Origin: a virus
Lineage: Duplodnaviria; Heunggongvirae; Uroviricota; Caudoviricetes
Direction: 5' to 3' (one strand)
IMG/VR virus record: IMGVR_UViG_3300028422_000701
Length of the DNA: 64,000 bases
The position numbers and the translations under genes were made by a program. Shown piece after piece: positions 40,254 through 41,021 of this stretch; positions within the stretch are counted from its first letter, which is position 1, and the number at the start of each line of letters is the position of its first letter. The notes under the pieces are model-generated. The model did not search any database, was not told the DNA's origin, and was given only the letters and a program-made list of their open reading frames with translations.

Positions 40254-41021
40254 TTACACGCCCTGCCTATTACCCCATACCAAAGTATGAAGTTGTAACA
40301 TAACATAAACGTCTTCCATATCACTTTCTAAAACCTTGGTAACAAGTTTTTCATAATCTTGTATTACCCTGTTTCGTACATTTAATATATCTTGTTCCCC
40401 AACGTCAGTGTTACCAACATTTAAGTACAATTTTATACCAGTTCTATTTGTACGTAGTTTAATATCTTGTATTAAGTTATAGTATCTACGAGCAAATTCA
40501 AAATCCTCGTCGTTAAATACTGGTATTTTAATTGTAACAGGTAAATTAAAACGTACTTTAGGATTATACATTAACCAATTACCTACGTTATCAATTACAT
40601 CAGGTTGTCCACTAGATGGTGCTTTTGGGCTAATAACCACATTGTCTACCTTGTCTAGCCAATCAGGTAATTTACTACCTTGTGTTTCAACATCCACTTT
40701 AATGTCAGCTTCATGTAATGCATTAATAACTTTACTAAAGTCATATAAACAAGGGTTACCACCTGTTAGTACAACATTTTTTGTATTTGTGTCTTGACAT
40801 TTAATTATTAATTCAAATAGTAGTTCATCTTCAGTATACACTTTTGTGTCATTATTTCTCTTCCAAGCAAACTTACTATCACACCAACTACAATTAAAAT
40901 CACACCCTACAACTCTAACAAATAAAGTTTTTTTACCTGTGTTAGGACCTTCTCCTTGTATTGTAGGACCTCAACCGAACACTTCGGCAACAGGTATTCT
41001 TACTGTTCTTTCGGTATTCAT
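40254..41021 (-). CDS. queE: 7-carboxy-7-deazaguanine synthase (radical SAM) interrupted by an in-frame TGA
   Basis: ATG 41021 gives [16 protein letters not shown], then TGA (plus-strand tca 40971-40973), then [32 protein letters not shown] continuing into the annotated ORF. Confidence 0.7.

Follow-up and report, generated by a model that had tools for sequence, protein, structure and literature searches.

An in-frame TGA in a phage queE gene lies in a 6-nt insert that ends a mobile HNH cassette and may be bypassed by a ribosomal stop-hop

We analysed a stretch of 64,000 nucleotides (nt) from the IMG/VR virus record IMGVR_UViG_3300028422_000701 (Caudoviricetes), referred to below as the window, in which the radical-SAM gene queE is interrupted by an in-frame TGA on the minus strand. 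We found that this TGA is part of a 6-nt insert which ends a mobile HNH endonuclease cassette that invaded queE. The anatomy, mobility and recurrence of the cassette are established, and the stop-bearing architecture comes back in two lineages that have diverged, over a total of nine samples. As for what the insert does, the reading that we favour, tentatively and somewhat short of calling it probable, is that it gives the carrier immunity to its own endonuclease and that QueE is still made by ribosomes that hop over the stop by +6 nt. The main rival to the stop-hop is that the cassette simply leaves a null allele behind. The evidence for the insert and the cassette is given first, followed by the signs of selection on the gene and the weighing of the alternatives.

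The queE reading frame and the 6-nt insert

Reading on the minus strand from the ATG at 41021-41019 gives 16 amino acids (aa), then the TGA at 40973-40971, after which the frame resumes and runs to the TAA at 40256-40254. With an X placed at the stop, the whole protein scores 214.1 bits with TIGR03365 (Bsubt_queE; cutoff 206.1), making it a Bacillus-type QueE; it matches B. subtilis QueE (5TGS/5TH5) at 4e-48, and the Pfam Radical_SAM domain is also matched. The cluster CDFNCSWC (CxxxCxxC) and QGEG are both present, and FG|PTIQGEG becomes contiguous only when 6 nt are skipped. QueE is not encoded here by a single uninterrupted open reading frame (ORF), the TGA being in frame and the native start being fused to an HNH gene. 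The body that follows the insert (PTIQGEG...CDFNCSWC...GGNP...QLHTLVWGNRQGV; 40254-40967, minus strand) has 237 codons and the TAA, with no second lesion. The longest conventional queE ORF begins only at the GTG at 40841, past the Cys cluster, and this ORF, of 195 aa, is the gene call in Logan. No in-frame ATG, GTG or TTG was seen between the stop and the Cys cluster, either in the window or in the second lineage described below (P0123-type).

It may be noted that the original prediction, made from the window alone, had described an in-frame TGA between the radical-SAM core and a brief N-terminal stretch, had likened the gene to queE of Bacillus and had placed the restart of the annotated ORF at a GTG beyond the Cys cluster; all of this is borne out by the translation, the TIGR03365 score and the GTG at 40841. 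It had also taken the gene as collinear with QueE, residue for residue, save for the stop. This does not hold, as the stop brings an extra Gly codon with it and the difference is a 6-nt insertion instead. Nor is the segment before the TGA the native N-terminus, as had been supposed: it is a recoded, cassette-borne duplicate, the native start being the ATG at 41587. The view of the TGA as a point lesion in queE must likewise be given up, as a mobile HNH cassette of about 587 nt has its 3′ end at this codon.

On aligning the locus to homologues, the insert is seen to consist of TGA (40973-40971) and GGT (40970-40968), i.e. positions 40968-40973 on the minus strand, where the window has TTC GGT TGA GGT CCT as opposed to TTY GGN CCN in relatives. 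The comparison with related genomes, which had been suggested as a check, sets the insert apart: the queE motif has no interruption in any of 13 IMG/VR relatives (52-62% identity), FGPTIQGEG is likewise unbroken in 119 of 119 protein homologues, and at least 120 viral contigs have the DNA motif unbroken as well. The run E13-F15-G16-P17-T18-I19-Q20-G21-E22-G23-P24 is invariant in an alignment of 35 sequences; skipping the 6 nt restores this run from E13 to P24 and gives a gapless alignment to B. subtilis QueE 5TGS. No 6-nt insert of any kind was found at the site in IMG/VR or in 185,579 GTDB genomes. The junction of the window, as an exact pattern, had no match in IMG/VR or the JGI metagenomes, and megablast gave no near-identical relative of the locus in INPHARED. 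The TGA is flanked by identical GGT codons, an arrangement present at only 3.1% of the stops in the window. A generally conserved GGN-stop-GGN hop was also considered and rejected, there being no matches to FG-NNN-GGN-PTIQGEG and the second lineage having AGA.

Genetic code and the reality of the stop

The TGA in queE is real. The window (30% GC) is densely coding with code 11, and its 57 ORFs (16,962 codons) contain 153 TGG and no other in-frame TGA, while TGA terminates six ORFs; this excludes a global recoding of TGA, which the original prediction had called unlikely. All five conserved Trp of queE are encoded by TGG. Code 4 (TGA=Trp) and code 25 (TGA=Gly) were discarded in view of the lack of further in-frame TGA against 153 TGG, and reading with code 4 extends real genes by only 4-8 aa. 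A Logan contig from SRR7216773 (65,196 nt) matches the window at 100% identity. A JGI contig (108,396 nt) of the same phage has the same QueE, with a 'W' at the TGA codon, and taken at face value this W would speak for a sequencing or assembly error or for TGA being read as Trp, Gly or selenocysteine. It is explained by gene calling with code 4: for three other TGA-terminated genes the JGI proteins are exactly those extended by TGA-to-W, and Logan has them as read with code 11. Because the JGI gene calling used code 4, the DNA of the JGI contig also has TGA at the queE site, and the Logan and JGI assemblies agree on this codon, with both possibly deriving from one sample. An insertion of 6 nt is atypical as a read error and is found in the two assemblies; seven further samples have an equivalent insert led by a stop. 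ARAGORN found no suppressor tRNA or TCA anticodon among the 25 tRNAs of the phage. Selenocysteine is out, as the sister lineage has TAA where selenocysteine needs UGA, and the same TAA weakens the UGA read-through and Trp suppression that had been offered along with it. The chance of an error or of a reassigned TGA is, in our judgement, next to negligible. Code-4 calling also shows in the JGI/IMG proteins P0121, P0242, P0244 and P0246, with false C-terminal extensions of 4-8 aa and a queE 'repaired' with Trp.

Anatomy of the HNH cassette

All features of the cassette lie on the minus strand. The native 5′ end of queE (ATG GTT AAA followed by copy 1, i.e. MVK-IPVAEIF; 41558-41587) now forms the first 10 codons of an HNH ORF, and of 119 QueE homologues, 107 have IPVAEIF, the N-terminus of the family. 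Upstream of it are the strong ribosome-binding site (RBS) of the native queE start (AAGGAGGAG; 41593-41601, by direct reading) and a promoter-like site, TTTACT-17-TATAAT with an extended TG (41614-41642), that is a match only in a consensus scan (10/12 + TG) and that would now drive the HNH fusion. The HNH ORF (41018-41587, 189 aa) is a homing endonuclease gene with NUMOD4 (PF07463, 4.4e-15) and HNH_3 (PF13392, 6.6e-08), and its homologues are annotated as HNH homing endonucleases of Firmicute phages. NUMOD4 homologues align to it only from residue 7-8 on. Since the ORF opens with the QueE N-terminus and the NUMOD4 match starts later, the HNH gene was inserted in queE after the Phe codon. None of 148 representatives carries a QueE prefix on HNH, P0123 alone does so among 120 homologues, and a HMMER search of representatives with the fusion segment gave no further QueE-prefixed HNH. 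P0125 (MTNVNEIF|VPIKGYEG), tried as a third fusion, proved to be an ordinary free-standing HNH beside rusA. This suggests a likeness of the native NUMOD4 N-terminus (EIW/EIF-xPI) to AEIFGP of QueE, one that may supply microhomology for the in-frame left junction.

Filled and empty sites, when aligned, give an inserted cassette of 587 nt with respect to uninterrupted queE (40971-41557), made up of the HNH body, a new start, an N-terminal extension, a recoded homology copy and the stop codon. From the contigs L152, L153 and L001 (see below), the mobile unit is probably a few nt longer, through GGT CCT ACA. The stop TGA of the HNH ORF overlaps the cassette ATG at 41021 (ATGA), and the Shine-Dalgarno (SD) sequence AAGGAG of this cassette-borne queE start (41033-41038) lies inside the HNH ORF, at its 3′ end, and the second lineage keeps it as AAAGGAGA. 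Translation gives a novel N-terminal extension MNTERTVR (ATG AAT ACC GAA AGA ACA GTA AGA; 40998-41021), for which the second lineage has MNTSK, followed by copy 2, the homology region IPVAEVFG (ATA CCT GTT GCC GAA GTG TTC GGT; 40974-40997), which is 71% identical to copy 1 and whose last codon, GGT at 40976-40974, is the proposed take-off Gly codon. Copy 1 (ATA CCA GTA GCA GAA ATA TTT) and copy 2 (ATA CCT GTT GCC GAA GTG TTC) differ at 6 of 21 nt, with five of the six differences at third codon positions (P=0.018). As the differences sit at third positions, copy 2 has evolved as coding sequence and is no recent duplication of the DNA.

A perfect 12-nt direct repeat (GAACAGTAAGAA, minus strand) is present at 41500-41511 and 40997-41008, TVR being found both in HNH (YGTVRS) and in the extension (ERTVRI). 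By our own estimate about 0.1 such repeats are expected by chance in an 800-nt region, and the repeat may be a trace of the origin of the N-terminal extension.

HNH endonucleases are frequent in phage group I introns, and excising exactly the 587 nt restores a perfect consensus in the window. The cassette could on this ground be a self-splicing intron that is spliced out from 41557 to 40971, joining MVKIPVAEIF to GPTIQGEG. We find this very improbable, however, as no Rfam family (group I/II included) is matched at E<=10, 570 of the 587 nt are ORF with no space for a ribozyme core, the final base is A where a group I 3′ end needs G, excision in L152 gives EIF-RPTIQ or EIF-PTIQ, both off consensus, and copy 2 evolves as coding sequence. 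An intein at the cassette was also tried and rejected, the ORF having only NUMOD4 and HNH_3 with no Hint domain and ending in TGA.

Recurrence, mobility and the empty site

The closest homologue of the HNH protein, P0123 (49% identity), begins with MKIPVAEIF-LPIPSYEG. On its contig (L152, from SRR28623930), queD is followed by [ATG AAG ATA CCC GTA GCA GAG ATA TTC | HNH] and then by a queE that reads ATG AAT ACT TCA AAA ATA CTA ATA GCT GAA GTA TTT GGT TAA AGA CCA ACT ATA CAA GGA GAG. This second lineage has TAA AGA at the position of TGA GGT in the window. The empty site is given by L001, a 175-kb viral contig to which L152 aligns on either flank at 70% and 79%, and a target segment of about 23 nt has two copies in L152 as against the empty site of L001. 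The P0123-type cassette (0-3 substitutions in 625 nt) was also found in a second queE background, with the N-terminus MANFNIAEIFGP|IPGYEG and the gene order queF-queC-queD-[HNH]-queE-folE (L153-L157 and L161, and L160 for the left junction only). P0123-type cassettes are present, L152 included, in eight samples and two queE backgrounds (L152 in one; L153-L157, L160 and L161 in the other), and their right end, GGT TAA AGA CCA ACT, is invariant in seven assemblies. L152 is the same as L153 up to '...TAA AGA CCA ACT AT' and thereafter the same as L001; because the match switches there, the stop-led 6 nt form the 3′ terminus of the mobile unit.

The queE of L153 (1116-2510) and L156 (4539-5933) also has an intein (PF14890) inside the radical-SAM motif (CDFNCEWC|FGIAPNNY...), and L157 has the same queE with no intein. 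Since the HNH cassette and the intein have both inserted in it, this gene is a hotspot where selfish elements of several kinds insert. The queD of L152 (1221-1665) is broken in two by a frame change of 1 nt, located exactly at a CGG codon (CAT CGG C TAT AAA; CAT ACT TAT AAA in L001), which could be an assembly error or another frameshift associated with CGG. Many in-frame TAG codons at conserved Gln (TI*GEG, ET*GS and NK*GV) were seen in the queE (L013, 6001-6717) of a 151-kb relative, L013/L024 (IMGVR_UViG_3300028797_000104 = Ga0265301_10000090); this phage is recoded from TAG to Gln and is unrelated to the TGA of the window.

Selection on queE, copy 2 and the stop

The ratio of nonsynonymous to synonymous substitution (dN/dS) was calculated for queE between a filled and an empty allele and between filled alleles. 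For L152 (filled) and L001 (empty) it is 0.08 (28.5 synonymous and 10.5 nonsynonymous changes). With both alleles filled, it is 0.12 for L157 and L153 (6 and 3 changes, P=0.003) and 0.16 for L156 and L153 (6 and 4 changes, P=0.006). The HNH gene has decayed in L156 (a 1-nt insertion) and in L157 (a premature stop and a 28-nt deletion), and despite this decay both have the stop cassette unchanged and queE open. The disruptive lesions thus number three in HNH and zero in queE (P=0.036). Between the lineages, AEVFG shows three differences, all synonymous, and the stop is kept at one codon (TGA in one, TAA in the other) though neutral sites are saturated; a random triplet would be a stop with P=0.079. 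The codon after the stop differs (GGT and AGA). These results speak for copy 2 and the stop having a function, and are not conclusive. The earlier suggestion that the phage may be losing DNA modification does not fare well, at least as it was stated, with a stop at the same position in a second lineage whose HNH is 49% identical, seen in eight other samples, and queE bodies that are open and have dN/dS of 0.08-0.16, even where the HNH gene has decayed.

The proposed stop-hop and its rivals

Through its in-frame fusion to the 10 codons that open the resident queE, the HNH gene uses the putative promoter, RBS and ATG of queE. In the mechanism that we propose, the 6 nt would break the recognition or cleavage site of the endonuclease and make the carrier immune, by analogy with the bypass insert of the MobA element in T4-like phages. 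Functional QueE would be translated from the cassette-borne ATG at 41021. Peptidyl-tRNA-Gly would sit on GGU (40976-40974), and UGA, which is slow to be decoded, in the A site; the tRNA would unpair and re-pair with the identical GGU 6 nt on (40970-40968), and decoding would pick up at CCU, giving the exact consensus of the family. Common to all alleles is that a skip of exactly these 6 nt gives the invariant family sequence. The phage encodes a tRNA-Gly(UCC) (54132-54207, minus strand, by ARAGORN), the relevance of which is speculative; the bypass in T4 gene 60 uses a tRNA-Gly with a UCC-type anticodon (Manning & Atkins 2022, bioRxiv 10.1101/2022.08.31.505936). That the GGU-UGA-GGU of the window is the first natural in-frame stop-hop, carried by undescribed queE-targeting HNH cassettes that are independent of MobA and gene 60, with dpdA perhaps a second case, is possible, and we put it forward with more reserve than the hop itself; it would imply that 'endonuclease + immunity insert + ribosomal bypass' is a general strategy of selfish elements.

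Hairpins can be drawn at the junction, GCCGAA-GUG-UUCGGU in the window and, in the second lineage, UUGGUU-AAA-GACCAA, in which the insert is looped out, and AUGAAUAC can pair with GAAGUNUUY in both lineages. A conserved RNA structure is not relied on here, given weak z-scores and a take-off hairpin that the lineages do not have in common.

Several points weigh against the stop-hop. We infer the hop from the logic of the sequence alone, and immunity of the target site is assumed from the example of MobA. The second lineage, with GGT TAA AGA, has no matched landing codon, AGA pairing at two of three positions at most with a UCC anticodon, and this mismatch also speaks for a null allele. The efficiency of synthetic stop-hops, in work of Weiss et al. 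in 1987, was reportedly about 1%. The stimulators of gene 60 (a long nascent-peptide signal, a take-off stem-loop and a mini-SD) have no clear counterpart here, the nascent chain being of 16 aa, and the RNA folds predicted at the junction had no significance (z = -0.9 to -1.9). The lineage of the window has a single member, its nearest QueE being 66% and its nearest HNH 49% identical. The low dN/dS of filled alleles could also precede the cassette, if homing took place into alleles that had already diverged. To these may be added the observations that fit a selfish cassette whose spread by homing inactivates queE, the invasions being recent, the body yet to decay and the phage having no 7-deazaguanine DNA, as the original prediction had suspected: the stop is unambiguous and is followed by no in-frame start before the Cys cluster; dpdA is frame-broken in the same phage and queD in L152, several pathway lesions being in keeping with decay; the P0123-type alleles, with 0-3 substitutions in 625 nt, are therefore recent invasions; a Vut_1 precursor transporter in the context of L153 could compensate; and MobA elements are suspected to be mildly parasitic (Manning & Atkins 2022).

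On the other side, a null allele leaves unexplained why the cassette has its own SD and ATG and a copy of IPVAEVFG conserved at the protein level, and why lineages whose endonucleases are 49% identical have a stop at the same codon and not any 6 nt (P about 0.08 if neutral). Decay is seen in HNH and none in queE, the filled alleles have dN/dS of 0.12-0.16, and folE, queD and queC of the window are intact. We therefore regard the null allele as unlikely, though by no means negligible, and keep the stop-hop as our tentative explanation.

Leaky termination would need no hop. Here near-cognate read-through would yield a little QueE carrying two inserted residues, enough for the pathway. One frame spans both sides of the stop, UGA is the leakiest bacterial stop, QueE of the E. 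coli type aligns only from the insert site onward, and other QueE subfamilies are one residue different in length at this site. The TAA of the sister lineage is however very poorly read through and would give FG-X-R-PTIQ. Also, the spacing of F-G-P-T-I-Q is invariant in the 119 homologues and in the run from E13 to P24, the 25 phage tRNAs include no suppressor and the second inserted codon (GGT and AGA) is not conserved as an amino acid. Read-through is improbable on this evidence.

The conservation of a coding copy 2 together with a stop would be accounted for if the gene were split, with the stop ending a mini-protein of 13-16 aa (…IPVAEVFG, the first beta-strand), the body reinitiating at AUA/AUU (the Ile of PTIQGEG) and the two pieces assembling. 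Splitting and reassembly are known for Mob-type insertions, among them the MobA-split topoisomerase and the MobE-split NrdA (Manning & Atkins 2022), and GAGGT is found 6 nt upstream of the ATA in the window. The second lineage, with AAAGA, does not keep this SD-like GAGGT, initiation at AUA is very poor and neither lineage has an in-frame ATG, GTG or TTG ahead of the Cys cluster. We know of no precedent for a 16-aa peptide complementing in trans, and a split gene appears to us quite improbable.

Phage context and the dpdA-like gene

The phage of the window is novel, of Firmicute type, low in GC and 108 kb or more in size; the PolA proteins of Bacillus phage Flasso and Clostridium phages are no more than 39% identical to its own. 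It carries folE, queD and queC (intact), a phosphoribosyltransferase gene and a DpdA-like gene. The last is frame-broken at 31014-31103 (minus strand), with MNSNNLKDKKPFNIYFAG in one frame and ...EADEYIDQQDLHRLLSYW... to 30172 in another. The spacing of YFAG-LLSY is constant at 21 residues in eight homologues, against which the window has 5 nt more, in a GC-rich patch at about 31053-31019, in agreement with the dpdA frameshift reported in the original prediction. The break in dpdA is found directly 3′ of a GIY-YIG/NUMOD1 homing-endonuclease gene (31109-31819), which is free-standing and has its own terminator, promoter and RBS, and no relatives of this GIY-YIG gene were found in IMG/VR. GTC (31049-47) and GTT (31044-42) are the only matched codon pair 5 nt apart, and the codon after GTC, in the A-site position, is CGG, the rarest of the window (2 of 16,962). 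The insert resembles the 'hungry codon' variants of MobA cassettes in this respect, such a matched pair being not rare by chance. It may be a second recoding insert linked to an endonuclease or plain decay, and is given as a lead only.

An array of 25 tRNAs (48115-54207, minus strand) covers most amino acids and includes tRNA-Gly(UCC) and two tRNA-Val(UAC). One tRNA-Met call (52841-52941) is unusually long at 101 nt, and might hold an intron or be a mis-call. Extended -10 promoter-like elements (tgtggtataat / tatggtataat) are seen ahead of queD (39300-39420) and of native queE (41610-41645) on the minus strand, which suggests that the deazaguanine genes are transcribed from several phage promoters of one type.

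Comparison with known systems

The closest parallel is the MobA element of T4-like phages, in which an HNH endonuclease splits the target gene and the element adds an N-terminal extension and a HomR that is 67-81% identical to the parental segment (Manning & Atkins 2022; Bonocora et al. 2011 as cited there). According to the same study, the MobA bypass cassette sits at an invariant Gly/Asp codon, with a conserved stop or hungry codon first and the landing codon last; the insert prevents self-nicking, and the endonuclease is often pseudogenised with the cassette persisting. The queE cassette is like MobA and gene 60 in that HNH sits inside a conserved ORF and close relatives have the filled and the empty allele (L152 and L001). 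As in MobA, there is a new N-terminal extension with a diverged copy of the host segment (71% identical in the window and 67% in the second lineage, MNTSK + ILIAEVFG), the stop-led insert comes right after an invariant Gly, at the extreme 3′ end of the element and near the landing codon, and the endonuclease has decayed in some carriers with the insert retained. Natural MobA cassettes all have matched or wobble-matched codons and MobA is found exclusively in Topo2L (Manning & Atkins 2022); the take-off codon and the codon for landing match in the window (GGT/GGT) and not in the P0123-type cassettes (GGT/AGA), and the target here is queE, coding for the radical-SAM 7-carboxy-7-deazaguanine synthase, and not the large subunit of topoisomerase II. 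The gap is of 6 nt and in frame as opposed to about 50 nt, and the take-off stem-loop, mini-SD and long nascent-peptide signal are not recognisable. Also, the upstream fragment of 10 codons is fused to the endonuclease, whereas MobA gives a C-terminal extension, and the endonuclease is of the NUMOD4/HNH_3 type of Firmicute phages. The queE cassette is therefore an analogue of the MobA family and not a member of it.

Synthetic stop-hops, in which matched codons around a stop are used, work in E. coli and turn 9 nt into one amino acid (PMC5009743). For natural in-frame stop-hops, Atkins et al. 2016 state that 'no occurences are known' (PMC5009743). By the account of reviews, short hops of this kind in nature had been anticipated for a long time. 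GGT TGA GGT is exactly the synthetic motif, and the product predicted from it is two residues shorter than that of read-through. The synthetic cases were engineered and of low efficiency, whereas the queE motif is natural, in a conserved gene and in the context of a mobile element. In the MobE-split nrdA of Aeromonas phage Aeh1, as with other host genes broken up by free-standing homing endonucleases, an endonuclease in the ORF likewise adds new termini and the host function can survive; it yields two sizeable proteins with proper starts, in contrast to the startless body and the 16-aa upstream piece of queE. The Byp elements in the mitochondria of Magnusiomyces capitatus are also short mobile inserts that are skipped, with an unreadable codon in the A site and landing sometimes at two out of three positions. 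They differ in being mitochondrial and 27-55 nt long, in having no link to a homing endonuclease and in the relaxed decoding of mitochondria.

With regard to phage 7-deazaguanine clusters (folE-queD-queE-queC-dpdA; Hutinet et al. 2019, PMC6884629), the window has the full gene set. The queE and dpdA genes known from such clusters are uninterrupted, whereas both genes of the window lie directly 3′ of homing-endonuclease genes and have short inserts that bring in a stop or a frame change. Gene callers truncate or mis-start genes of this kind, as seen in the 195-aa Logan fragment without Fe-S ligands and in the use of code 4 by JGI. Predictions of phage DNA hypermodification, and hence of resistance to restriction, will err either way as long as such cassettes go unrecognised. 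For programmed bypassing in translation, essentially a single bacterial example has been studied well, T4 gene 60 with its MobA homologues, in one topoisomerase gene. The queE locus would be a minimal and independently evolved counterpart in a different gene, phage and host group, and it offers filled and empty alleles, lineages with matched and unmatched codons and variants with a decayed endonuclease, and is therefore directly testable.

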